Below are positions 33,427 to 56,094 of a stretch of DNA of 64,000 nucleotides, piece by piece; the stretch's first letter is position 1; each line of letters begins with the position of its first letter. The position numbers were made by a program, and so were the translations under genes. The notes under the pieces are model-generated. The model searched no databases and was not told where the DNA came from. It saw only the letters and a list, made by a program, of their open reading frames with translations. Location: NCBI GenBank assembly GCA_035506715.1, contig DATJOW010000144.1:4560-68559 (forward strand). The letters run 5' to 3'. Source of the DNA: Candidatus Acidiferrum sp. GTDB taxonomy: Bacteria; Verrucomicrobiota; Verrucomicrobiia; Limisphaerales; UBA11358.

Positions 33427-35646
33427 ATGCCCTTCGCCAAACTCAACCGTCTGATATGGGTGCACGCGATTCTGGCGGTCGGAGCCGTGGCGCCGTCGCC
33501 CGCCAGCGCCGAGCCGCCGGTAACGCTCTCCGAAGGTGATTCCAGGTTCGTGCTCGACAACGGGCTGGTGACCGCGCAGGTCGCCAAGCGCTCCGGCGAT
33601 TTAATTTCGCTGAAATACAAAAGCCTCGAGTTGCTGGAGGCCGGCTCCGGACATCCCTTCGGTTATTGGTCGCACGACGCCTCCCGGGGCCGGCATGAAA
33701 CCCGCATCACGATTGATCCCCGAACGAATGGCGGCGCGCTGGGCGAGGTTTCGGTCAAGGGCATTTATGTGTCTCCCGCAGGGGGCGCTGGCGCCTTCGG
33801 CGGTTTCGGTCGCGGCGGCACGGCCTGCGACGTTGAAATCCGCTACACCCTGGCGCGCGGGCTGGCGGGCGTTTACACGTATTCAATTTTTGAGCACCGG
33901 ACGAATTACTCGCTGACCGGCATCGGCGAGGCGCGCTTTGCGGCCAAACTCAATCCGGACATTTTCGATTATCTCAACGTGGACGCCCGGCGCCGCAAGA
34001 TCATGCTCACGCCGCCGGACTGGCTGGCCGGGACCGAGTTGAATTTTCCCGAGGCGCGACGGCTCAGCACCGGCATTTACCGCGGCCAGGTTGAACACAA
34101 ATACGATTACGCGGCGAATCAATTCGAAACCCGCGCTTACGGCTGGCTGGGCACGAAATCACATGTCGGGCTCTGGTTCATCAACCCGTCCGTCGAATAC
34201 CTGAGCGGTGGCCCGACGAAATATGAATTGACCGGCCATCTGGACATCAGCGCGGAAGCCGCGCCGGTGCTTTTGAACTACTGGCGCAGCAGCCACTACG
34301 GCGGCGCCGTCTGTTTCGTCACCAACGGCGAGCCCTGGACCCGGGTGGTCGGGCCGTTCCTGATTTACTGCAATGCTGCGGAGACCCCGGATGCGATGTG
34401 GCAGGATGCACTGGCCCGGGCGGTGCAGGAACAAACGGCCTGGCCCTACGACTGGGTCGGCGGCGTGGATTACCCGCACCGAGCCGACCGTGCGACGGTC
34501 AAAGGTCAACTGGTTTTAAACGATCCGCCGGCGCCGAAGGTGAACATACACCACCTGCTCGTCGGGTTGACGGCGCCGGATTACCTGCCGCCGCGATTGA
34601 ACCGCGGCTTCGGCGGCTTCGGCCTGTTCAGCCCGGCGGGTGGCGGCGAGGATGATGGCAACAACCAGCCCGGCGGCGGCTTGACCAATTCAATCGGGCA
34701 CAGCGGTGAAATTGCCGGAGGCGATGAAACAAACCGGCTGGTAGTCTCCAACCGAGAGCGCAGCAACAACTACGGTTCTGGCCAGGTTGACACCAATCGT
34801 TCTCGCGGCGGCCGTTTCGGTCGCGCCGGCTTCGGCGGGTTTGGCGGGTTTGGCGGCCCGCGCGTCGTGGACTGGCAGAATGACGCGAAGCACTACGAAT
34901 TCTGGGAGCGCGGCGACACCTCGGGACGCTTCATCATTCCGGCTGTCCGTCCCGGCACTTACACGCTGCACGCCATCGCCGATGGCGTCCTGGGTGAATT
35001 CGTCCTGACCAATGTCGTTGTGACCCCTGGCCAGACGCTGGACCTCGGCAAGTTGAACTGGCCGCCGGTCCGCTACGGTCGCCAGCTCTGGGACATCGGC
35101 ATCCCGAATCGCACCGGCGCGGAATTCTTCAAGGGCGACGATTATTATCACTGGGGCTGGTATCTTGAATACCCGAAGCTGTTCCCGCAGGATGTGAACT
35201 ACATCATCGGCAGGAGCGATTTTCGCAAGGACTGGTTTTTCGAGCAGGTGCCGCACAATCCGGATCCGAACAACGCCGACGGCCGCGGCCGGGGCCGCGA
35301 AACGACGTGGTCCATCACCTTCAACCTGCCGGAGGCTCCGAAGGGCCGCGCAACCTTGCGGCTGGCCATCTGCGGTGCGGGCACGCGCACGTTGATCGTG
35401 CGTGTAAACGGCCAGCCCGCCGGCACCGTCACCAATCTGGTTTACAACGCCACCATCAACCGGGACGGCATCGGCGGCTCATGGTCGGAGCACGACCTGG
35501 CCTTTGACGCGGCCTTGATGAAATCGGGGACCAATGTGATGCAACTGACCATTCCGGCCGGCTCGCTTACCAGCGGCGTCATCTACGATTACGTGCGGTT
35601 GGAGCTGGATGAGCACGCGTTGCCGCCCCAGGCCGGTGGATCCTGA
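33427..35646 (+). CDS. Rhamnogalacturonan lyase, PL4 (plant/bacterial type) with Gly/Phe/Arg-rich insertions
   Basis: Signal peptide, then FVLDNGLVTAQVAKRSGDLISLKYKSLELLE...GYWSH. The middle domain WQNDAKHYEFWERGDTSGRFIIPAVRPGTYTLHA and a C-terminal CBM-like segment (LRLAICGAG..., IYDYVRLE) are present. Confidence 0.8.
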   Translation: MPFAKLNRLIWVHAILAVGAVAPSPASAEPPVTLSEGDSRFVLDNGLVTAQVAKRSGDLISLKYKSLELLEAGSGHPFGYWSHDASRGRHETRITIDPRTNGGALGEVSVKGIYVSPAGGAGAFGGFGRGGTACDVEIRYTLARGLAGVYTYSIFEHRTNYSLTGIGEARFAAKLNPDIFDYLNVDARRRKIMLTPPDWLAGTELNFPEARRLSTGIYRGQVEHKYDYAANQFETRAYGWLGTKSHVGLWFINPSVEYLSGGPTKYELTGHLDISAEAAPVLLNYWRSSHYGGAVCFVTNGEPWTRVVGPFLIYCNAAETPDAMWQDALARAVQEQTAWPYDWVGGVDYPHRADRATVKGQLVLNDPPAPKVNIHHLLVGLTAPDYLPPRLNRGFGGFGLFSPAGGGEDDGNNQPGGGLTNSIGHSGEIAGGDETNRLVVSNRERSNNYGSGQVDTNRSRGGRFGRAGFGGFGGFGGPRVVDWQNDAKHYEFWERGDTSGRFIIPAVRPGTYTLHAIADGVLGEFVLTNVVVTPGQTLDLGKLNWPPVRYGRQLWDIGIPNRTGAEFFKGDDYYHWGWYLEYPKLFPQDVNYIIGRSDFRKDWFFEQVPHNPDPNNADGRGRGRETTWSITFNLPEAPKGRATLRLAICGAGTRTLIVRVNGQPAGTVTNLVYNATINRDGIGGSWSEHDLAFDAALMKSGTNVMQLTIPAGSLTSGVIYDYVRLELDEHALPPQAGGS

Positions 35647-35711
35647 AAAACTCCCCGGCCCGTCGCCGCCGGCTGCGGAGGACAAGTCGGCAATGATTTG
35701 CCGTTCGGCGA

Positions 35712-37196
<1,485 letters not shown>

Positions 37197-37589
37197 AAAT
37201 TCAATTGACTGGATTGACTGGATTTCAACCCCGGAGGGCGCGTCCTCAACGCCTTGGACGGTCGGCAACCGGAAAAGTTCAAATTGGATTTGTCAACCGA
37301 GCGTTCAAGGCGTCATGACCTCAATACGGCAGGGGAAATTTCGCAGTCAACTCAGGCACACGGTGGCGCAGCCCGGCCGCGCTGTCAAGCTGCTAAACCG
37401 TTTTTTTTCTTGGGCGCTTTCCGCCCTCGCCGGTGCTGTCGGGCGAACCGGGTACCGGATGGGAAACTGTTTATCCGTTATGCCCGGAGGCGCTTCGAGG
37501 GCGCCTTTGGAAAATTCTTGCGATAAGACAGTTTATGAATTCGTTGGTGGCCTGGCCAGATTCTTCACACTTTGCCAGCTACGACCTTG

Positions 37590-39767
37590 TCAATATGGCA
37601 ACGGAAACTTCGCCGTCAGCTCGCGCACGCGCCCGCGGACCTTGTGCGCCGCCTCCACGTTTTTGAGGTCCTGCAGCACTTCGGAAATCATGTCCGCAAT
37701 CGCCGCCATCTCTGGCTCCTTCATCCCGCGCGTGGTCACCGCCGGCGTGCCCAGCCGGACGCCGCTGGCCTGGAACGGCGAGCGCGTCTCGAACGGAATC
37801 GTGTTTTTGTTGACCGTGATGCCGGCCTCGTCGAGCGCGGCCTGGCAGTCCTTGCCGGTCAGGTTCTTCGCCCCCACGTCCACGAGCATGAGGTGATTGT
37901 CCGTGCCGCCGCTGACGAGGCGGTAGCCGTTGCGCTTCATGCCTTCGGCCAGCGCCCGGGCGTTTTTCACAATTTGTTCCTGATAGACCTTAAATGCGGG
38001 TTGCAGGGCTTCCTGGAAGCAGACCGCCTTGGCGGCGATGACGTGTTCCAGCGGTCCGCCCTGGATGCCGGGGAAAACCGTGGAGTCGATTTCCTTGGCG
38101 AATTTTTCCGGACACAAAATCAATCCGCCGCGCGGCCCGCGCAGCGTCTTGTGCGTGGTGGTGGTCACGAAATCCGCGTGTCCGACCGGGCTGGGATGCA
38201 ACCCCGCCGCGACCAGGCCGGCGATGTGCGCAATGTCCGCCAGCAAATAGGCGCCCACTTCCCGGGCGATTTCGCCCATGCGCTTGAAATCGATGATCCG
38301 CGGATAGGCGCTGGCGCCCACGGTGATCATCCTCGGCTTGTGCTCCCGGGCCATTTGGGCGAGCTGGTCATAATCAATCCGCTCGTCGTCCTTGCGCACG
38401 CCGTAATGGACGATTTCAAAGAACTTGCCGGAGAAGTTCACTTTGTTGCCGTGGGTCAGATGCCCGCCGTGGCTCAGGTCCATCGTCAGCATCTTGTCCC
38501 CGGGCTTGAGCATGGCGAAGTAGACGGCCATATTCGCCTGGCTGCCCGAGTGCGGCTGGACGTTGGCGTGTTCCGCGCCGAAGATCTTTTTGGCGCGGTC
38601 AATGGCCAGCTGCTCGACCGTGTCCACATTTTCGCAGCCGCCGTACCAGCGCTTCTTCGGCAGGCCCTCAGCGTATTTGTTCGTGAGAACAGAGCCCTGC
38701 GCTTCCAGCACCGCCGGGCTGGTGAAATTCTCGCTGGCGATCAGCTCGATGTTTTCCTGCTGCCGCAGCCGCTCATGCTCGATGGATTCAGCCACGGCCG
38801 AGTCCACCTGGCTCAGGCGCAAGGCCGGCGCGGCGGAACGGGCATCCATTTTGTTGACCCGGCGCTCGTGGCGGCCGCCTTCGAATTTGGCGGCGATAAA
38901 CGCGTCGAGAATTTTCCGGCCCACATCGGGCGAGGTGTTCTTGCCGCTGAGGCAGAGGATGTTCGCATCGTTGTGCTGGCGCGCCAGGGTGGCGGAGGTT
39001 TCATCGGCCACGAGGGCGGCGCGTGCGCCGGGCACCTTGTTGGCGGTCATGCTCACCCCGATGCCGCTGGTGCAGATGAGCAGGCCGAGCTTCGCCTGTC
39101 CGGCCGCCACTGCCTGGGCCACCGGCCGGGCAAAATCGGGATAATCGTCCGCCGGATCCTTGGTCCTGGCGCCAAAGTCGGCGACGCTCAGTCCGCGTTG
39201 TTGCAGGTGCTGTTTCAGCGCCTCTTTCAGTTCAAAACCGCCGTGATCCGCCCCGAGGGCGACGCTCGCGACGGCGGCCGGTTTGGCCCCGTGCGGGGCC
39301 GAGAGAATATCGTGTTGTTCCATAAATTTCAAAAGGGAGGCGATGCCGTGTTCGATCTGGTCGCGGCAGTGTTCATAAACCATATACGCGCTGCCAATCG
39401 GATCGGGGATGTCTTTTTCAAACTCCTCGAGCGAGTCATCAAACTCACGCAGCAGGAAGGTCTTTTCCGCCGCCTGCGGATACAGCAACGCGATGGCGTC
39501 CACGTGACTGCGGGTCATGCCGAAGATGTAATCCGCCTCCTGCAGGAGGTCCGTCGTCAACATCCGGCTGCGCTGGTTGGAGATGTCGATGCCCCGCTCG
39601 CGCATCGCTGTTACCGAATGCACCGTGGGCGGCTGGCCATCCACGGCTCCCAGACCGGCCGAGAGGACGCGAAACTCCCCCCGCCCGGCCGCCGCCCGGC
39701 GGAAGAGCGCCTCCGCCATCGGGCTGCGACAGATATTGCCGGTGCAGATGAACAAGATGGTTTTCAT
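37590..39767 (-). CDS. glyA: Single ORF fusing an LMW protein phosphatase-like domain, ribose-5-phosphate isomerase B and serine hydroxymethyltransferase
   Basis: Residue numbers in this entry and the related finding follow the track ORF, which opens at TTG 39776; the preferred ATG 39767 is residue 4. aa 4-155: [22 protein letters not shown] (CX5R loop). aa ~171-310: [46 protein letters not shown]. aa ~320-728: [62 protein letters not shown]. There is no stop codon or frame change between the modules. Confidence 0.85.
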
Positions 39768-39818
39768 GCCGCGCAAAGACTCAAGTTGAGTGCTCTCGCG
39801 CCTGCCGTCAACCCGAAA

Positions 39819-40886
39819 TCAGGGACGCGGTCCGCGGAGGGCCGCCAGCCCCTTGACGAGGTCCACCGCCCGCACCAAAACGGGATCGCGCAGCTGCGGC
39901 TTGGGCGGTAGGTCGGCAACTGTGGCAGCCGGACTGACGTCACTGTCGTCGTCGGCGCTCCGGGCCGGGACTTTCACCGGTCTCATCGATGCGGGAAGTC
40001 CGTTCGATTTCGCGTCCTTTTGTTTCTGCCGGACCAAGTCCGCCTCGCTGGTGCGGTCCACGAACGGCAAAAAGCTGTTGGTGACCGCTCTGGCCGCGTC
40101 GCCGGTCGGTTTTTTCGTGACATAAGGATTCCGCCAGAAGGCGCGTTCCTCCTCGGCTGCCACGTTCACGGTAATGTCGGGTTTCAAACTTTCCGTCGGA
40201 TTGATTTTGCCGTCTGGTTTTGCCGGGGTGGTTGCGATCAACAGCCGTTCGCCGTCTTTCAAGACAAACGGCTTGAAAACCAGGGTGCTGCCGGCGGTCG
40301 TGTTGCCAAGGATCAATCCCGTGCCGGCTGAGCGCAGCGCCGCCGCCAGTGTTTCCGCCGCCCCGTGCGTCCCGCCGTTTACCAAAACGACCAGTGGCCC
40401 GCCAATCGGGCGGGAAGCTCTTTGGTCAGACAGAAGTGCGGCGACGGCCTGGGAGGCCCCGTAATCTTCCCCGCCGGCAAAGCGTAAATCCAAAACCGCC
40501 CCGGCGATGGTGTTCGACGCCGTCAAAGTCCGGCCGGTGTCGGCCAACTCGGCTGCCAGGCCGGTGGTGACCCGGTCCACGCGCCAATACACAACGTTGT
40601 TTTCGATGATGGCGGATCGGCTCAAGGCTTTTTCACCGGATCCGGGGGCCGTTCCGGTTGTACCTTCGCTGACGAGTTCGATCTGGCCGGGAAACTGTGC
40701 AATCAGGCCAGCCACGGCGGCGCGGTTCAGGCTGGCATCGGTGGCGCCTGGCAGGTTGGTCAGCAGCAATTCATAGACTTCCTTGAAATCCGGCGCCGGA
40801 TTGGTTGCGTCCGCCCGCAAGATGCCGGGAGCGGCCAGCCAACCGGTCAACGCCAGGATGAAAAGGCACGGAAATTGTCGCGTCAT
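39819..40886 (-). CDS. S41 (C-terminal processing) peptidase-like protein, catalytic residues apparently substituted
   Basis: Signal peptide MTRQFPCLFILALTGWLAAPGILRA. The block PLVVLVNGGTHGAAETLAAALRSAGTGLILGNTTAGST aligns by eye to the S41 motif VVLvn..SASASEi.AgAL......lvG..TfGKG. Confidence 0.55.
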   Translation of the reverse strand: MTRQFPCLFILALTGWLAAPGILRADATNPAPDFKEVYELLLTNLPGATDASLNRAAVAGLIAQFPGQIELVSEGTTGTAPGSGEKALSRSAIIENNVVYWRVDRVTTGLAAELADTGRTLTASNTIAGAVLDLRFAGGEDYGASQAVAALLSDQRASRPIGGPLVVLVNGGTHGAAETLAAALRSAGTGLILGNTTAGSTLVFKPFVLKDGERLLIATTPAKPDGKINPTESLKPDITVNVAAEEERAFWRNPYVTKKPTGDAARAVTNSFLPFVDRTSEADLVRQKQKDAKSNGLPASMRPVKVPARSADDDSDVSPAATVADLPPKPQLRDPVLVRAVDLVKGLAALRGPRP

Positions 40887-41011
40887 GCAACACCAAAATG
40901 CGCGACAGAATCGCGAAAGTAAAGGCGTCAGGCATTGACGCTTTGCGATTTACGAATCCATCCATTCATCCCGGCTGGCGCGTATATAGTATATGGTCAA
41001 TCGTAAATTTC

Positions 41012-41044
41012 TTGTCGGATTCCAAGCCTCGGCGGCGATATACT
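41012..41044 (+). promoter_or_regulatory. Candidate promoter of the fused ECF sigma gene 1 (shared TTGTCGGATT box plus TATACT)
   Basis: TTGTCGGATT (41012-41021) also occurs at 44410-44419 upstream of the paralog. In both cases an A/T-rich -10-like hexamer (TATACT here) starts 17-18 nt after the box. Confidence 0.35.
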
Positions 41045-41053
41045 GGCAAAAGC

Positions 41054-42679
41054 ATGACAAGCGATTTGGATTTGCTGGGGCAATTCAGCCGTGACCATTC
41101 GCAGGACGCCTTCACCGCGCTGGTGAATCGTCACTTGAACTTGGTCTATTCGGCGGCGCTGCGCCAGGTCCGTTCATCGCAACTGGCCGAGGAAATCGCC
41201 CAATCCGTCTTCGTCGACCTAGCGCGCCAAGCCGGCAAATTGGACAAGGCCACCGGCGGCTCGCCGGTTTTGACCGCCTGGCTTTACACGGTCACCCGCC
41301 GAACGGCGATTGACGTGGTGCGGCGCGAGTCCCGCCGACGGCTGCGCGAACAAATCGCCGTGGAGACGACGAATATGAATGCAACCTCCTCTGACTGGCA
41401 GCAAATAGAGCCACTGCTGGACGATGCGATGGCGGCGCTCGACGACACCGACCGCAGCGCCGTCCTGCTCCGCTATTTTGAAAACAAATCCCTCCGCGAA
41501 GTTGGCGAAGCGTTGGGAACTTCGGATGACGCCGCACAAAAACGGGTCAGCCGCGCCGTGGAGCGCCTGCGCGAATTCTTCACCAAACGCGGCGTCGCTG
41601 TCGCCGCCAGCGGCCTCGCCGTTTTGGTTGCTGCCAACGCCGTCCAAGCCGCGCCGGCTGGACTCGCTGCCACAATTTCGGCCGCCGCCGTTCTGGCCGG
41701 AACTGCTGTTTCCACTTCAACCGTCATCACTGCCACCAAAGCCATTGCCATGACCACCCTGCAAAAAGCCATGATCACCGCCACCGTCGTCATTCTGGCC
41801 GGAGGCGGAATTTACGAAGCTCGCCAAGCCACGCAACTGCGCGAGCGAAATCAGGTCTTCCAGCAAAAGCAAACCTCATTGGCCCAACAACTCGGGCAGT
41901 TACAACAGGAATATGCCGACATGAGCAATCGATTGGTCGCGTTACAGGCAGAAAACGCACAATTGAAATCTGGTCAGAACACGGCTGAACTGCTGAAACT
42001 GCGCGGAGAACTGGCGCGCCGCCAAAACGCGACAAACGATCCGGCTGATGGCGCCGCCAAATCGTGGTTGACCCGCGTGAATCAACTCAAGCAATACCTT
42101 GATCAGAACCCGCAGGCAAAGATTCCGGAACTGCAATTTGTGACCGAAGATGACTGGCTGAATGCCGCCCGCGGGAGTTTGAACGGCGATGCGGATTATC
42201 GCCGCGCCATGAGCACACTGCGAAGCGCCGGTGAACACAAAGTCGGGAACATGCTGCAAAAAGCGCTGAAAGCGTATATGCAGGCCAACCACGACCAGAT
42301 GCCGACTGACTTGGCGCAATTGCAGCCCTATTTCGACTCGCCCTTGGACGATGCCATTCTGCAACGGTGGGAGATTGCGCCAGCGGAAACCGTCCAGAGC
42401 CTGAGACTCGGCGGAGATGTGATCATCACACAACGAGCGCCAGTGGATGAAGTGTTCGATATTCGCTGGGGCATCGGCCCCAATGGCTTCGGCAGCACGG
42501 ATTTTTTATCAACGTCAACCGATACGTACAAAACGATGCAACCAGTGTTCGACGCCTACCGCGCAGCCCACAACGGACAATGGCAGGATAATCTCTCAGA
42601 ACTCCAGCTTTACGCCACCACGCCGGAACAACAGGCGGCGTTACAGAAATTGATTCTGAAAAAAGCCGCTGGGAATTAG
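41054..42679 (+). CDS. ECF-type sigma-70 factor with a long membrane-spanning/coiled-coil C-terminal extension
   Basis: ATG 41054. The sigma region-2-like segment is FTALVNRHLNLVYSAALRQV...IAQSVFVDLAR. The region-4 HTH is AVLLRYFENKSLREVGEALGTSDDAAQKRVSRAVERLREFF. An Ala/Thr-rich hydrophobic block, a Q/L-rich heptad region and a ~200-aa tail follow. Confidence 0.8.
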   Translation: MTSDLDLLGQFSRDHSQDAFTALVNRHLNLVYSAALRQVRSSQLAEEIAQSVFVDLARQAGKLDKATGGSPVLTAWLYTVTRRTAIDVVRRESRRRLREQIAVETTNMNATSSDWQQIEPLLDDAMAALDDTDRSAVLLRYFENKSLREVGEALGTSDDAAQKRVSRAVERLREFFTKRGVAVAASGLAVLVAANAVQAAPAGLAATISAAAVLAGTAVSTSTVITATKAIAMTTLQKAMITATVVILAGGGIYEARQATQLRERNQVFQQKQTSLAQQLGQLQQEYADMSNRLVALQAENAQLKSGQNTAELLKLRGELARRQNATNDPADGAAKSWLTRVNQLKQYLDQNPQAKIPELQFVTEDDWLNAARGSLNGDADYRRAMSTLRSAGEHKVGNMLQKALKAYMQANHDQMPTDLAQLQPYFDSPLDDAILQRWEIAPAETVQSLRLGGDVIITQRAPVDEVFDIRWGIGPNGFGSTDFLSTSTDTYKTMQPVFDAYRAAHNGQWQDNLSELQLYATTPEQQAALQKLILKKAAGN

Positions 42680-44313
42680 GCCCGAACTTCGGCCCCCGGC
42701 CGGTTCCTTAATTCCACGCGCCGGGTTTTGCCGCTGATGGTCTGGGGCAATTCCCGCACGAACTCGATTTCGCGCGGGTATTTGTAGGGCGCGGCGTTCT
42801 GTTTGCAGTGCTGCTGCAGCTCGCGCATCAAATCGTCGCCCGCCACCGCTTCCGGTCGCAGAATGACAAACGCCTTCACAAGCTGCCCGCGTACGTCGTC
42901 CGGCTTGCCCACCACCGCCGCGTCCAGCACTGCCGGATGTTCCAGCAGCACGCTCTCCACCTCAAATGGCCCGATCCGGTACCCGGCACTTTTGATCACG
43001 TCGTCCCGGCGCCCGATGAAATAAAAATAACCGTCCGGGTCGCGCACCGCGCGGTCGCCGGTGAGATACCAGTCGCCGCGGAACTGCCGGGCCATCTCCA
43101 CCGGGTTCAACCAGTATTCCTGAAACAGCCCGACCGGACGATGCGGTTTCACGCGCACGGCGATTTCGCCCTCCTGGCCGGCGGGCAGCTCAATTAAATC
43201 GTCGTCGAGCAGCGCCACTTCAAAGCCCGGCGCCGGTTTGCCCATCGAACCGGGGCGCACTTCATGGCCGAGCGGGCGGAAGTTGCCAATCAACGCCACC
43301 GTCTCCGTCTGGCCGTAGGCCTCGTGGAGGGCCAGGCCGGTGGCGTCCTGCCACAGCTTCAGCACTTCGGGATTCAGCGGTTCCCCGGCGGTGACACAAT
43401 GCCGGAGCCGCGGAAATTTCCAGCGCGACAGGTTCTGCCGGACAATCAACCGCAGCGCGGTCGGCGGGGCGCACCAGGTGCTGATGGGAAAGCGCGCCAG
43501 GACGTCGAGCGTCATCACCGGATCGAACTTGCCGTGGACATTGAGCGCGAACACGCACGCGCCCATCTGCCACGGGCCGTAAAAACTCGACCACGCGGCC
43601 TTACCCCAGCCGAGGTCGGAAATGTTCCAGTGCACCTCGCCGGGTTTGCAGTCGAGCCACAACCCGCCGGTGAGCCGGTGGCCGAGGCCGTAGCTCGCCT
43701 GCGTGTGCAACACCATCTTTGGGTCGCCAGCCGTGGCGCTGGTGAAATAAATGATGCCCGGATCATTGCTGCGCGTCGGCCCGGTTTGAAACGTTGTTTC
43801 CACTTTGCGCAAGGCGGCATCGAAATCAATCCAGCCCGAAGGCGCGTCGCCCACCGCCAGCCGGATGCCGTCGAAACCACCCACCTTGACGATGCCTTCA
43901 GCGTCGGTGATGACGGCCCGGATGCGCGCTGCCTGGAGCCGGTACGTGACGTCGCGCGGGGTGAGCAGCAGCGTGCCCGGCACCGGCACCGCGCCTAGCC
44001 GGATGAGGCCGAGCATGGCAATCCACCATTGCGGCACCCGCGGCAGCATGATGAGCACGGTTTGGCCGCGCCGTACTCCAGCCGACCGAAAGACATTGGC
44101 CGCCTTGGCGCTAAGTTCCGAAAGTTGGGCGAACGTGAATTTCTGTTCCGCGCCGGTTGCGGCGTCCACGCACCACAATCCCGGCGTGTCCGGCTGGATT
44201 TTGGTCCAGCGATCCATCACATCCGTGGCGAAATTAAAATGCTCAGGAACCTGTAATTCCCAGGAAGATGCCGGATCACTCTGAGCGCGGAGGGCCGTGA
44301 GATGGGTGCTCAT
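42676..44313 (-). CDS. AMP-dependent acyl-CoA synthetase/ligase (medium-chain/aryl type)
   Basis: Motifs: IIYFTSATAGDPKMV (variant AMP-binding motif), YGQTE, GDWYLTGDRAVRDPDGYFYFIGRRDDVIKSAGYRIGPFEVES, ISGKTRR. Confidence 0.85.
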   Translation of the reverse strand: MSTHLTALRAQSDPASSWELQVPEHFNFATDVMDRWTKIQPDTPGLWCVDAATGAEQKFTFAQLSELSAKAANVFRSAGVRRGQTVLIMLPRVPQWWIAMLGLIRLGAVPVPGTLLLTPRDVTYRLQAARIRAVITDAEGIVKVGGFDGIRLAVGDAPSGWIDFDAALRKVETTFQTGPTRSNDPGIIYFTSATAGDPKMVLHTQASYGLGHRLTGGLWLDCKPGEVHWNISDLGWGKAAWSSFYGPWQMGACVFALNVHGKFDPVMTLDVLARFPISTWCAPPTALRLIVRQNLSRWKFPRLRHCVTAGEPLNPEVLKLWQDATGLALHEAYGQTETVALIGNFRPLGHEVRPGSMGKPAPGFEVALLDDDLIELPAGQEGEIAVRVKPHRPVGLFQEYWLNPVEMARQFRGDWYLTGDRAVRDPDGYFYFIGRRDDVIKSAGYRIGPFEVESVLLEHPAVLDAAVVGKPDDVRGQLVKAFVILRPEAVAGDDLMRELQQHCKQNAAPYKYPREIEFVRELPQTISGKTRRVELRNRPGAEVRA

Positions 44314-44409: not shown

Positions 44410-44443
44410 TTGTCGGATTTTCGCCCGGGCGGTTGTTTAATAG
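44410..44443 (+). promoter_or_regulatory. Candidate promoter of the fused ECF sigma gene 2 (TTGTCGGATT box plus TAATAG)
   Basis: It has the same 10-mer as 41012-41021. TAATAG (44438-44443) ends 5 nt before ATG 44449. Confidence 0.35.
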
Positions 44444-44448
44444 GTGAG

Positions 44449-46008
44449 ATGCAGGAAAAGTCCGACCTCCAACTGCTCCGTGACTACACCGAATGTGGTC
44501 AGGAAGCCGCCTTCCATGAGATCGTTCTGCGTTATACGGATTTCGTGTATGCCGCCGCGTTGCGGCAGGCGGAATCCGCCGATCGGGCGGCAGACATTGC
44601 CCAAAACGTTTTCGTGGACCTGGCGCGCAAAGCCCGATCAGTTGCAGAACGATCGGGGGCAGAAGCTTCACTGGCCGGCTGGCTGCATCGAGCCACGCGC
44701 TACGCAGCACTGAATCATCTGCGCGACAACCGCCGCCGCGTCAACAACGAAAGGCAGGCCATGGAACAACTCCTCACCGATTCCGAACCCGCTGCGGATT
44801 GGGTGCAAATCCGCCCCGTGCTCGACGAAGCCCTCGACAGCCTGGGCGATGACGACCGCGAGGCTGTGTTGCTCCGCTATTTCCAGAACCAGGATTTCCG
44901 CGCTGTCGGGATCGCGCTCGGTATCAGCGACGATGCCGCACAAAAGCGAGTCAGCCGGGCTGTGGAACGGCTGCGTGAATTTTTCTTAAAACGCAAAATC
45001 GCCATTGGCGCCGGCGGGCTCGTTGCCTTGATTTCCGCCAATGTGGGGCAAGCCGCTCCGGCTGGATTGGCAGCCGCCATTTCCACCGCCGCGCTCGCCG
45101 GAACCGCCGTTTCAACCTCAACTGCAATCGCCGCCACCAAAATTATCGCCATGACCACTCTCCAGAAAGCCGTTGTCACCGCCACCGTCGCTGTTTTGGC
45201 CGCCGCCGGCATTTACGAAGCTCGTCAAGCCGCGCAATTGGGCGAAGAAAACCAAGCGCTCCGGCAACAGCAAGCGCCGCTGGCCGAACAGGTCCGGCAT
45301 CTGCAAAATAATCTGGCGGACGCGACCAACCGGTTGGCGGACATGTTGGCGGAAAATTCGCGGTTAAAATCGAATCCAAATCAGACCGAGCTGTTGAAAT
45401 TGCGTGGAGAAGTGACGCAATTGAAAACAGCCGCAATGCAAAAGAAAAGTGACCCCATTGAAGCTGTGGCAACCGCGCGGGCTGCAAAAGTGAATCAACT
45501 CAAGCAACGGCTGGAGCAAATGCCCAACGAAAGAATTCCCGAGCTTCAATATTTAACCGCTCAAGATTGGCTGCGAGGTGCGACTTATAGCGGTGATTTG
45601 AATACAGACGATGATTTGGACCGGGCTTTGAGCCAATTGCGACGCGATGCCAAACGAACGTTTGCTTATTCGATAGGGGAGGCTTTGGCTAATTATATTG
45701 CAGGCCATCGCGGACAATTGCCCGGCGACATCTCACAGCTGGAATCTTACTTCAATCCGCCGATTGACGGGACAATTCTTCAGCGCTACCAACTTTTGCG
45801 GGCGGGAAATTTAAGCGACATTCCGAACAATGAGCCATTGATCGCAGAAAAAGCGCCGGTCGACGATCAATACGACACGCTCTTCAACATCAGCGCCACC
45901 AGCTTTTCTTATCAAGGCACAGGAACCTCATGGGTGAACGGAAGCGGCAAAGGTGATTTTGGAACAAATATAACCGCGAAAATAAAGCCGTTTGAAAGAG
46001 AGAATTAA
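44449..46008 (+). CDS. ECF-type sigma-70 factor with a long membrane-spanning/coiled-coil C-terminal extension (paralog of 41054..42679)
   Basis: ATG 44449. Motifs: FHEIVLRYTDFVYAAALRQA, IAQNVFVDLAR, AVLLRYFQNQDFRAVGIALGISDDAAQKRVSRAVERLREFF. It has the same Ala/Thr-rich block (QAAPAGLAAAISTAALAGTAVSTSTAIAATKIIAMTTLQKAVVTATVAVLAAAGIYEARQAAQL). Confidence 0.8.
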   Translation: MQEKSDLQLLRDYTECGQEAAFHEIVLRYTDFVYAAALRQAESADRAADIAQNVFVDLARKARSVAERSGAEASLAGWLHRATRYAALNHLRDNRRRVNNERQAMEQLLTDSEPAADWVQIRPVLDEALDSLGDDDREAVLLRYFQNQDFRAVGIALGISDDAAQKRVSRAVERLREFFLKRKIAIGAGGLVALISANVGQAAPAGLAAAISTAALAGTAVSTSTAIAATKIIAMTTLQKAVVTATVAVLAAAGIYEARQAAQLGEENQALRQQQAPLAEQVRHLQNNLADATNRLADMLAENSRLKSNPNQTELLKLRGEVTQLKTAAMQKKSDPIEAVATARAAKVNQLKQRLEQMPNERIPELQYLTAQDWLRGATYSGDLNTDDDLDRALSQLRRDAKRTFAYSIGEALANYIAGHRGQLPGDISQLESYFNPPIDGTILQRYQLLRAGNLSDIPNNEPLIAEKAPVDDQYDTLFNISATSFSYQGTGTSWVNGSGKGDFGTNITAKIKPFEREN

Positions 46009-47297
46009 AATTGCGCCTTCGCCGCAATGTCCCGGCGGAAGTGCGCGCCGTCGAAGTGGATTTTCTCCACGGCGGCGTAAGCGGCAGCCTGCGCGGCTTT
46101 CAAATCCTTGCCGAGCGCGGTCACGCCGAGGACGCGCCCGCCGTTTGTCACGACCTGGCCATCCTTCAACGCCGTTCCGGCGTGGAATACTTTCGTTCCG
46201 GGCAGCGCGCCAGCTTGTGCCAGGCCGAGGATCGGCTCGCCCTTGGCATAATTGCCCGGATAACCGCCGCTTGCCATCACCACGCACACGCTCGCCATCG
46301 AACTCCACCGCAATTCCATTTTACCCAGCGTGCCGCTGACGCTGGCGTCGAGCAATTCCACCAGATCGTTTTCCAGCCGGGTCAGATAAACTTGCGTTTC
46401 CGGATCGCCAAAGCGCGCGTTGAACTCCAAAACCCTCGGACCGGCTTTCGTCAGCATGATGCCGGGATACAGAATGCCGCGGTAATCAATGCCCTCCGCC
46501 GCGCAGCCGCGCAGGAACGGTTCCAGAATCGTCCGGCCGGTGTCGGCCAGTTGCGCGTCGGTCAGGAACGGCGTCGGGGAATAGGTGCCCATGCCGCCGG
46601 TGTTTAACCCGCGGTCACCATCCAGCGCCCGCTTATGATCCTGCGACGTTGGGAACAGTTTCGCCGTTTTCCCGTCGCAAAGCGCGTGCAACGAGATTTC
46701 CATGCCCCCGAGGAATTCCTGCATGACAATTTTTGCGCCCGCCGCGCCGAAGGCGTGATTGACGAGGATTTCGTCAATTGCTTTGTGTGCCTCGGCCACA
46801 TTCGTACAAATCAAGACGCCCTTGCCCAGCGCCAGGCCGTCGGCCTTGACCGCGCATTTGCCGCCGAGGATCTCCGCGAATTTTTTGGCCGCCGCCGGCT
46901 CGGCAAAGGTGCCGGATTTGGCAGTGGGAATGCCGTACTTTTCCATGAAATGCTGGGATAAAACCTTCGACGACTCAAATTGTGCGGCCCGTTGATTCGG
47001 TCCCCAGATGCGCAGGCCATGCCTCTGGAACAAATCCACGATGCCCAGCGCCAGCGGATTGTCCGGCCCGACGACGGTGAGGTCGGCTTTCTTCTCCTGC
47101 GCGAACGCGAGCAGCTTCGGCAAATCCTCCGCGCCGAGGTTGACGCATTCAACCGGCGCCTGGTTTTTCTCAAGCCGTTCTTGGGCGATGCCCGCGTTGC
47201 CGGGCGCGCACCACAGTTGCGTGACGTGCGACGATTGCGCCAGTTTCCAGACCAGCGCGTGTTCGCGGCCGCCTGAACCGATGACGAGAATTTTCAT
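46005..47297 (-). CDS. purD: Phosphoribosylamine--glycine ligase
   Basis: ATG 47297 gives MKILVIGSGGREHALVWKLAQS. The ATP-grasp body is present (AKADGLALGKGV, EFLGGMEIS, TNGGRVLGVTA). Confidence 0.95.
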   Translation of the reverse strand: MKILVIGSGGREHALVWKLAQSSHVTQLWCAPGNAGIAQERLEKNQAPVECVNLGAEDLPKLLAFAQEKKADLTVVGPDNPLALGIVDLFQRHGLRIWGPNQRAAQFESSKVLSQHFMEKYGIPTAKSGTFAEPAAAKKFAEILGGKCAVKADGLALGKGVLICTNVAEAHKAIDEILVNHAFGAAGAKIVMQEFLGGMEISLHALCDGKTAKLFPTSQDHKRALDGDRGLNTGGMGTYSPTPFLTDAQLADTGRTILEPFLRGCAAEGIDYRGILYPGIMLTKAGPRVLEFNARFGDPETQVYLTRLENDLVELLDASVSGTLGKMELRWSSMASVCVVMASGGYPGNYAKGEPILGLAQAGALPGTKVFHAGTALKDGQVVTNGGRVLGVTALGKDLKAAQAAAYAAVEKIHFDGAHFRRDIAAKAQF

Positions 47298-47363
47298 GGA
47301 AAACGTCCCCCGCAGCATACGACGCGCGCGCAAATTTTGGAAGAACAGGTTGGAACCGGGCGT

Positions 47364-47394
47364 AAGAAAAGCCGGGAGCAAAGATGCTCCCGGG
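47364..47394 (-). terminator. Rho-independent terminator after the PL11-PATR gene
   Basis: On the minus strand, CCGGGAGCA-tctt-TGCTCCCGG (9-bp perfect stem) is followed by CTTTTCTTA. Confidence 0.7.
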
Positions 47395-47426
47395 ACCCGC
47401 AGCCAAGGATGGCCGCGCAACGGCAA

Positions 47427-55026: not shown

Positions 55027-56094
55027 TCACTCCACCCGCGCCTTGCCCCTGCCTTTGACCACTTCCCCAATCAGCCAAGCCTTGTGCTTTTGAGCGCGGA
55101 TGAATTTCAGGATGGCATCCGCCTGACTCGCCGACACGATGGCGACCATGCCGATGCCCATGTTGAATACCTGGTAAAGCTCGGCGTCCGGCACGCGGCC
55201 TTTGGCCTCAATCAATTTGAAAATCGGCAGCATGTCCCATGAACCTTTCCGGATTACCACGTCGCAATTCTTTGGCAGCACGCGCGGAATGTTGTCCACG
55301 AACCCGCCTCCCGTAATGTGGGCGAAGGCTTTGATTGGATGTTGGGCGTTGAACGTTGAATGTTGAATGTTGAACTTTTTCAACAAGGCCTGCACGAGCG
55401 GGCCGTAGCTGACGTGGACTTTCAACAACTCTTTGCCAATTGTGCCTTTCAATCCCGGCACGCGGCTGGCCGGCTTCAACCGCATCTGCTCGAAGAAAAT
55501 TTTCCGCGCCAGCGAATAGCCGTTCGTGTGGAGGCCGCTTGACGCGATGCCGAGTACGGCGTCTCCTGCCCTCACGGTTTTCTGGCCGTTGAGCATCGTT
55601 GATTTTTCGACGATGCCGACAATCGTGCCGCTGACGTCGTATTCGCCTTTCTGGTAAAAGCCGGGCATCTGGGCGGTCTCGCCGCCGATGAGCGCGCAAC
55701 GATTCTCCGCGCAGGCGCGGGCGAAGCCGCGAATGATTTCGGTGAAGACGTGCGGCTCAAGCTTGCCGGCCCCGAGGTAATCCAGGAAAAACAGCGGCTC
55801 GGCACCCAGCACGGCAATGTCGTTGACGCAATGGTTCACGAGGTCGGCGCCGATGGTGTCGTGCCGGCCCATGGCAAAGGCGATTTTGAGCTTGGTGCCG
55901 ACGCCGTCCACAGACGACACGAGCACCGGCTCGCGGTATTTCTTGAGGTCGAGCGCGAACAGGCCGCCGAAGCCGCCGACCTTGCCGAGCACCTCGCGGC
56001 GGTGCGTGGAGGCGAGCAATTGCGGCAGGGTGGCTTTGACTTGGTTGCCCAGAGCAATGTCCACGCCGGCGGCGGCGTAAGCCTTTGGTTTCAT
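55027..56094 (-). CDS. purM: Phosphoribosylformylglycinamidine cyclo-ligase (AIR synthetase)
   Basis: Motifs: YAAAGVDIALGNQ, GGFGGLF, SVDGVGTKLK, GGETAQMPG, AHITGGGFVDNIPRVLP, FNMGIGMV. Confidence 0.95.
   Translation of the reverse strand: MKPKAYAAAGVDIALGNQVKATLPQLLASTHRREVLGKVGGFGGLFALDLKKYREPVLVSSVDGVGTKLKIAFAMGRHDTIGADLVNHCVNDIAVLGAEPLFFLDYLGAGKLEPHVFTEIIRGFARACAENRCALIGGETAQMPGFYQKGEYDVSGTIVGIVEKSTMLNGQKTVRAGDAVLGIASSGLHTNGYSLARKIFFEQMRLKPASRVPGLKGTIGKELLKVHVSYGPLVQALLKKFNIQHSTFNAQHPIKAFAHITGGGFVDNIPRVLPKNCDVVIRKGSWDMLPIFKLIEAKGRVPDAELYQVFNMGIGMVAIVSASQADAILKFIRAQKHKAWLIGEVVKGRGKARVE
55333..55374. repeat. Six tandem heptamers (TTCAACA-type on the coding strand) lying in frame inside purM
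   Basis: The minus strand reads TTCAACA TTCAACA TTCAACG TTCAACG CCCAACA TCCAATC, which is 42 nt or 14 codons (FNIQHSTFNAQHPI). It shares TTCAACGCCCAACAT with 61804-61818 and CCCAACATCCAA with 54902-54913. Confidence 0.7.

Follow-up and report, generated by a model that had tools for sequence, protein, structure and literature searches.

Does the DNA examined here encode three enzymes as a single polypeptide, and if so, how did such a gene arise and what might its product do? The locus lies in a 64,000-nucleotide (nt) stretch of contig DATJOW010000144.1, assigned to Candidatus Acidiferrum sp. and hereafter called the window. A first-pass annotation had proposed that one uninterrupted minus-strand frame, 37590-39767, carries complete modules of a low-molecular-weight (LMW) phosphatase, RpiB and serine hydroxymethyltransferase (SHMT), and that a conserved gene neighbourhood had collapsed into this gene. 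The analysis described below makes it likely that the fusion gene is genuine and vertically inherited, that it arose from such a collapsed neighbourhood, and that it specifies one polypeptide of ~79 kDa with three catalytically competent modules.

A single conserved reading frame

The open reading frame (ORF) in question occupies 37590..39776 on the minus strand, with 728 codons when read from TTG 39776 and 725 when read from ATG 39767. In 76 of the 80 orthologs the gene begins at the counterpart of ATG 39767, and the catalytic Cys of the phosphatase follows seven codons further on. No stop codon or frame change was found at either junction in the raw sequence of the window ORF. The ORF list and the raw sequence thus bear out the single frame, and the positions given on first pass for the junctions (39266-39312 and 38819-38850) and for an internal ATG (38847-38849) proved accurate. 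Per-domain profile searches returned three end-to-end Pfam matches, in agreement with the three complete modules recognised earlier and well above anything that chance would give.

Relatives were collected by a search of 5.8 billion proteins, from which figures are given for the top 120 clusters, and by a scan of GTDB species representatives, in which at least 563 genomes contained a relative; ortholog figures are from the best 80 of these (72-90% identity). The top 120 protein clusters contain the same three Pfam domains in products of 684-726 amino acids (aa; 722-726 aa in 118 of the 120) that are 82-100% identical. They stem from independent NCBI, JGI and ENA assemblies and bear the names Verrucomicrobiota, Verrucomicrobiae or Limisphaerales. 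NCBI already contains a protein with 100% identity to the window product (P0001). All of the best 80 species representatives cover aa 1-725, each in a single uninterrupted frame. Relatives of the window gene thus keep the same triple architecture, and, judging by these homologs, the fusion is widespread in Limisphaerales/Pedosphaera (Verrucomicrobia subdivision 3).

Linker 1 joins the phosphatase to RpiB. In the 81-ortholog alignment its sequence is hypervariable and its length differs by up to about nine residues, yet all indels are in-frame and no stops occur. A linker that varies so freely and is never interrupted fits the prediction of selection for read-through.

The names given to these proteins in databases are inconsistent ("ribose 5-phosphate isomerase B", "serine hydroxymethyltransferase", "glycine hydroxymethyltransferase"), and pathway reconstructions can therefore miss Rpi or GlyA. 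Some metagenome-assembled genome (MAG) records that contain a Limisphaerales-type gene are titled Bifidobacteriaceae, Bifidobacterium, Akkermansia muciniphila, Candidatus Acidoferrum, Aquilonibacter, Sulfotelmatobacter or Proteobacteria (loci L010, L019, L022, L023, L034, L037, L063, L058, L072, L016, L036, L055 and L059); these titles are probably taxonomy mislabels.

Properties of the three modules

The phosphatase module matches positions 1-143 of the 144-position PF01451 profile (E = 3.5e-34; 118.5 bits versus a gathering cutoff of 23.2). Its P-loop has the C-X5-R-(S/T) form, and the general acid, D122, sits in the sequence DIPDPIG. Residues C8, R14, S15 and D122 are invariant in the 81-sequence alignment, as is the D122-P123 pair. 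Among solved structures, the best matches are to YwlE arginine phosphatases (4PIC, 4KK3 and 1ZGG), with E values near 1e-24. Comparison of families places the module closer to YwlE (E = 4e-24 to 2e-23) than to Wzb-type protein tyrosine phosphatases (E ~1e-15) or ArsC (~1e-13). An ArsC-type arsenate reductase was rejected, since the NCBIfam ArsC equivalogs score far under their cutoffs; the Wzb equivalogs of NCBIfam are likewise all far under cutoff for this module.

Substrate preference in this family is known to depend on the P-loop residue that precedes the second Cys, where Thr (CTGN-T-CRS) favours phosphoarginine and Ile favours phosphotyrosine (PMC8001253). The aligned YwlE structures read CTGNTCRS. 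Of the 81 fusion sequences, 47 have V at this position, 32 have I, two have L and none has Thr, so the residue associated with phosphoarginine preference is lacking. The acid loop also differs, being DPI in the fusion and DPF in YwlE. The predicted substrate signature is thus mixed, with a YwlE-like backbone and a non-YwlE P-loop position and acid loop. PDB 4egs, a solved LMW phosphatase of 180 aa, bears the molecule name "Ribose 5-phosphate isomerase RpiB", perhaps inherited from LMWPc and RpiB genes that are neighbours or fused.

The RpiB module matches the whole of PF02502 (profile positions 1-138 of 138, E = 4.2e-53) and scores 153.7 bits against the TIGR01120 rpiB equivalog of NCBIfam, above the cutoff of 138.65. 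It contains the Cys motif, an Asp-His pair near the N-terminus of the module, a His-Asn pair and the GGRHxxR phosphate-binding motif, residue roles being assigned from E. coli RpiB. Among the 81 sequences, D174 and H300 are invariant, C232, H265 and R299 are each present in 80, and H175, N266 and R303 each in 79.

In the SHMT module, PF00464 is matched over its full length (1-399 of 399) by aa 318-694, with E = 2.4e-168 and 560 bits, and NCBIfam NF000586 is matched with 652 bits at a cutoff of 335. The pyridoxal 5'-phosphate (PLP) lysine K540 and the surrounding PLP motif are invariant in the 81 sequences, except for a T536 to S change in two.

Related architectures and the origin of the fusion

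The triple-fusion architecture is already known, having been published in 2008 and again in part in 2026, and therefore adds little as a discovery. Minf_1669 of Methylacidiphilum infernorum V4 was described as having the same three modules in one polypeptide, and a serine-pentose phosphate pathway link was proposed for it (Hou et al. 2008, Biol Direct 3:26, PMC2474590). The window protein is of this type: it too combines the three domains in a single polypeptide and comes from Verrucomicrobiota. The likeness to Minf_1669 is taken here from the published description, and the domain order of Minf_1669 is absent from the paper. The two organisms differ in order (Methylacidiphilales and Limisphaerales, respectively), and, unlike M. 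infernorum, the window organism is apparently a polysaccharide degrader. RpiB of Limisphaera was reported to carry an additional SHMT domain, such enzymes also being present in other Verrucomicrobia (PMC13608581). Limisphaera belongs to the same taxonomic order as the window's relatives; the N-terminal phosphatase module goes unmentioned in that paper, and no biochemistry is reported there. No biochemical characterisation of the fusion was found in the searched literature.

The Bacillus neighbourhood on which the first-pass annotation had based its proposal was retrieved in Bacillus tequilensis (L088) and Anoxybacillus (L089), where co-directional genes are ordered Sua5(ywlC)-MntP-LMWPc-RpiB-DUF436-SHMT-upp, corresponding to ywlC(tsaC)-ywlD(mntP)-ywlE-ywlF(rpiB)-ywlG-glyA-upp. 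The three functions, their order and their orientation are the same as in the fusion, so that the genes are arranged collinearly with the modules from N to C terminus; the Bacillus genes are separate, however, with MntP and DUF436 genes interspersed.

Additional evidence comes from divergent triple fusions (39-59% identity; P0121, P0123 and P0188/P0271). Two divergent loci (39-43% identity) have a Sua5/TsaC gene immediately upstream of the fusion, in the order purE-S41-Sua5-fusion in L086 and purD-purE-S41-Sua5-fusion in L087. Together with the collinear order, the Sua5 gene directly upstream of divergent fusions supports the collapsed-neighbourhood origin. At the Limisphaerales loci the Sua5 gene is absent, and the conserved cluster comprises the S41 peptidase gene, the fusion and rho. 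An ancient co-directional neighbourhood of tsaC/sua5, LMW phosphatase, rpiB and glyA genes would thus have lost stop codons and spacers to give the fusion. Three divergent triple-fusion representatives, called from M17, seemed to have a truncated phosphatase. This was rejected, because in all three the DNA ahead of M17 encodes the P-loop in the same frame, and the called starts are therefore wrong.

In an exhaustive 50%-representative search, two-domain RpiB-SHMT proteins of 555-577 aa were found in clusters from Victivallales (P0122/L081) and Kiritimatiellia (P0124, P0289/L082-L084). P0124 and P0122, from relatives in the PVC superphylum, have the same order and junction as the window protein and 53-56% identity to it over aa 169-724, but no phosphatase module and a different genomic context. 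A stepwise collapse of an operon gained no support: it would predict an unfused LMWPc gene ahead of the two-domain genes, and none was found. The phosphatase was either added in Verrucomicrobiota or lost in the Victivallales/Kiritimatiellia lineages, both of which the two-domain loci allow.

SHMT also occurs in other fusions, in which the partners, as recognised by eye from sequence, appear to be different: with dihydrofolate reductase (DHFR; P0136), with DHFR and a thymidylate-kinase-like domain (P0138, 811 aa), with a MeaB/ArgK-like GTPase (P0195, 728 aa), and with an N-terminal domain of ~130 aa (P0154). As in the window protein, SHMT in P0136, P0138 and P0195 is the C-terminal part of a multi-enzyme polypeptide of nucleotide/one-carbon metabolism; the partners are different, DHFR being directly linked to SHMT in its pathway.

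The fusion matters as a phylum-scale "Rosetta stone" that ties a YwlE-type LMW phosphatase to RpiB and GlyA. The same gene association persists in Bacillota, and its functional logic has never been explained. The fusion could reveal whether YwlE-like phosphatases act in pentose-phosphate or one-carbon metabolism, and cultured carriers, Limisphaera and Methylacidiphilum, make the protein experimentally tractable.

Proposed function and alternative explanations

We infer the three activities of the fusion, its oligomeric assembly, its selective advantage and the substrate of its phosphatase. Each module most likely keeps its usual chemistry, as its conserved motifs suggest. RpiB would interconvert ribose 5-phosphate and ribulose 5-phosphate, SHMT (GlyA) would convert serine and tetrahydrofolate (THF) to glycine and 5,10-CH2-THF in a PLP-dependent reaction, and the phosphatase would hydrolyse phospho-monoesters via a Cys-phosphoenzyme. 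Since RpiB and SHMT share no metabolite, channelling is not expected, and coupling would occur only by co-expression or co-assembly. The likely benefit would be a fixed stoichiometry for nucleotide-synthesis supply: enzymes that provide phosphoribosyl pyrophosphate, glycine and one-carbon units would of necessity be co-expressed and co-assembled in a 1:1:1 ratio. The RpiB active site forms at a dimer interface.

Some limits apply to the picture of a three-enzyme polypeptide derived from a collapsed neighbourhood. An AlphaFold2 model of the full-length monomer, built from a 28-sequence alignment, had a mean pLDDT (predicted local distance difference test) of 48 and a pTM (predicted template modelling score) of 0.31, with confidence limited to the RpiB module. 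No additional glyA, rpiA or LMW phosphatase genes were found within the 64-kb window, and no LMWPc gene was found near the two-domain RpiB-SHMT loci of Victivallales and Kiritimatiellia. Enzyme activities across the fusion family are deduced from sequence. Finally, in a divergent high-GC lineage (P0188/P0271; L087 4001-6052), the SHMT module lacks the PLP lysine (K540 is replaced by A) as well as the SHGGHLTHG and ELIASENF motifs, while it is full-length and stands beside intact phosphatase and RpiB motifs. The SHMT module of P0271 has apparently been retained though catalytically dead, and "three active enzymes" therefore does not hold family-wide.

The retention of a dead, full-length SHMT with an intact phosphatase and RpiB is the basis for a different suggestion, that SHMT is a scaffold organising RpiB and the phosphatase into a defined assembly, and that the invariant phosphatase controls this assembly or its partners by dephosphorylation. 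We regard this suggestion as doubtful. In the more general form of a regulatory role, the phosphatase would act in cis, on the assembly or on a partner, dephosphorylating RpiB or SHMT, or else SHMT would serve mainly for oligomerisation. Besides the structural role suggested by P0271, the invariance of the phosphatase catalytic residues and the association of LMW phosphatase with rpiB from Bacillota to Verrucomicrobiota are in line with such regulation. However, nothing points to RpiB or SHMT being phosphorylated in these organisms, two-domain RpiB-SHMT proteins function without a fused or adjacent phosphatase, and the SHMT catalytic motifs are fully conserved in the window lineage, so that SHMT is not merely a scaffold there. 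A primarily regulatory fusion is thus unlikely.

A gene that is fused may still give rise to separate enzymes, through internal initiation at M307 or elsewhere, or through proteolysis in the linkers. The first-pass annotation had noted that an internal ATG could allow a stand-alone SHMT. This in-frame codon falls precisely on the RpiB/SHMT junction; linker 1 appears to be flexible and exposed, and it contains the only sigma-70-like match in the gene (39304-39332). However, codon 307 is ATG in only 54 of the 81 orthologs, TTG in five, and a non-start codon (CTG, CTC, CTT, ATT, ATC, TTC or TTT) in 22. Fourfold-site diversity near junction 2 (H = 1.48-1.50 bits) exceeds the gene mean of 1.26, and since it is not reduced, no embedded ribosome-binding site or promoter is conserved there. 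No Shine-Dalgarno-like motif precedes the internal ATG, and the one sigma-70-like match compares with 0.8 expected, i.e., it is at chance level. An internal promoter or ribosome-binding site at junction 2 was rejected on the basis of codon identity, synonymous diversity and the promoter scan, leaving the stand-alone SHMT unsupported. The lasting selection against stops and frameshifts in the hypervariable linker also implies that read-through matters, and separate products seem quite improbable.

The chance that errors of assembly or sequencing created the fusion, through a missed stop or an indel that joined three adjacent genes, is negligible: the source is evidently a MAG, and indel errors can join adjacent co-directional genes, but independent assemblies (P0001-P0003) give 725-aa products that are identical or nearly so, the frame is intact over both junctions in all 80 retrieved orthologous loci despite substitutions and in-frame indels, and the same architecture was reported for the closed genome of M. 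infernorum.

Genomic context of the fusion gene

The positions of the fusion gene, its parts and its neighbours are collected in Table 1.

Table 1. Features of the fusion gene and its surroundings in the window
Feature	Position	Strand	Details
Fusion gene, complete	37590..39767	-	725 codons + stop (37590-37592); start ATG 39765-39767
LMW phosphatase (LMWPc) module, aa 4-145	39333..39758	-	Pfam PF01451
P-loop C8-T-G-N-I-C-R14-S15	39723-39746	-	C-X5-R-(S/T)
Linker 1, aa about 151-168	39264..39317	-	rich in A, G, S, P, T
RpiB module, aa 169-307	38847..39263	-	Pfam PF02502 (LacAB_rpiB), TIGR01120
RpiB catalytic C232	39072-39074	-	C-x-[ST]-G motif
Internal ATG (M307)	38847-38849	-	at RpiB/SHMT junction
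Junction 2, aa 308-317	38817..38846	-	short, semi-conserved, part of K-M-[DE]-x6-L-[RK]-L
SHMT module, aa 318-725	37593..38816	-	Pfam PF00464, NCBIfam NF000586
PLP lysine K540 of SHMT	38148-38150	-	in PLP-binding motif
Displaced relic of fusion 3' end	37321..37449	-	last 13 codons + stop at 37321-37362; weaker similarity to ~37449
rho, downstream, co-directional	35712..37268	-	Pfam Rho_N, Rho_RNA_bind, ATP-synt_ab
S41-peptidase-like gene, upstream, co-directional	39819..40886	-	Pfam PF03572; 51 nt from fusion start
ECF (extracytoplasmic function)-sigma-like gene	40898-42679	+	593 aa
AMP-binding enzyme	42676-44313	-	
ECF-sigma-like gene	44410-46008	+	532 aa
purD	46005..47426	-	Pfam GARS_N, GARS_A, GARS_C
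PurM-like AIRS protein	55027..56094	-	

The S41 gene is immediately upstream of the fusion in about 53 of 70 orthologous loci. No terminator-like site was found in the 51-nt gap between the two genes, which are probably in the same transcription unit. On the other side, rho is downstream of the fusion in about 55 of 62 loci. The conserved rho start, ATGCCAAGAGTCTC (MPRVSTKK), is at ATG 37196, 24 codons downstream of the listed TTG 37268, and is probably the true one. The rho protein has a low-complexity N-terminal extension of ~80 residues, rich in A, P, E and K, before the Rho_N domain. An Rfam scan of 35000-41500 revealed no known RNA element at E <= 1.

Both purD and a PurM-like gene, named on first pass in support of a purine link, were found in the window. 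The link itself stands in part: in about 23 Limisphaerales loci the S41 gene and the fusion have purD upstream of them, and purD also lies upstream of S41 in L087. From its position in related loci, purD appears to be ancestrally adjacent to the S41-fusion pair. In the window, three genes, absent from related loci, separate purD from S41 (the two ECF-sigma-like genes and the gene for the AMP-binding enzyme). Because purD adjoins S41 in many related loci, this block looks inserted. In both ECF-sigma-like proteins, sigma regions 2 and 4 are confined to the N-terminal 190-225 residues, and a very long C-terminal extension follows.

Next to rho, the segment 28687-35646 (plus strand) encodes an alpha-L-arabinofuranosidase and two rhamnogalacturonan lyases of polysaccharide lyase family 4 (PL4), the enzymes that point to a polysaccharide degrader; they are consistent with a pectin-degrading Limisphaerales lifestyle.

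A relic of the fusion 3' end

The spacer between the fusion and rho contains a displaced relic of the 3' end of the fusion gene, found by tblastn (E = 0.001). Relic and live 3' end are identical at 33 of 42 nt, and seven of the nine differences are synonymous. Equivalent relics were found in 11 of the 80 orthologous loci (L001-L007, L009, L012, L014 and L031), 117-1065 nt past the stop. In L002, L005 and L009, the relic directly adjoins the gene as a tandem copy of ~50 codons that has decayed. Elsewhere the interval between stop and relic contains PemK/MazF toxins and small upstream ORFs (L004, L014 and L012), a PIN toxin (L006 and L007) or a Y1/IS200-type transposase (L003). A mobile repeat was rejected, as the 227-nt stop-to-relic segment has no second copy in the window or the retrieved loci. 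In a small sample of five relics, identity at what were once third-codon positions is 93%, versus 67% among live 3' ends.

The contents of these intervals suggest that the 3' end of the fusion gene is a recurrent insertion hot-spot. Alternatively, the relic, a derivative of the fusion 3' end, may have become a promoter or leader element of rho. As to the insertions, small toxin-antitoxin and transposase cassettes may use the conserved last ~40 nt of the gene as their attachment site; the arrangement resembles icd/e14 in E. coli.

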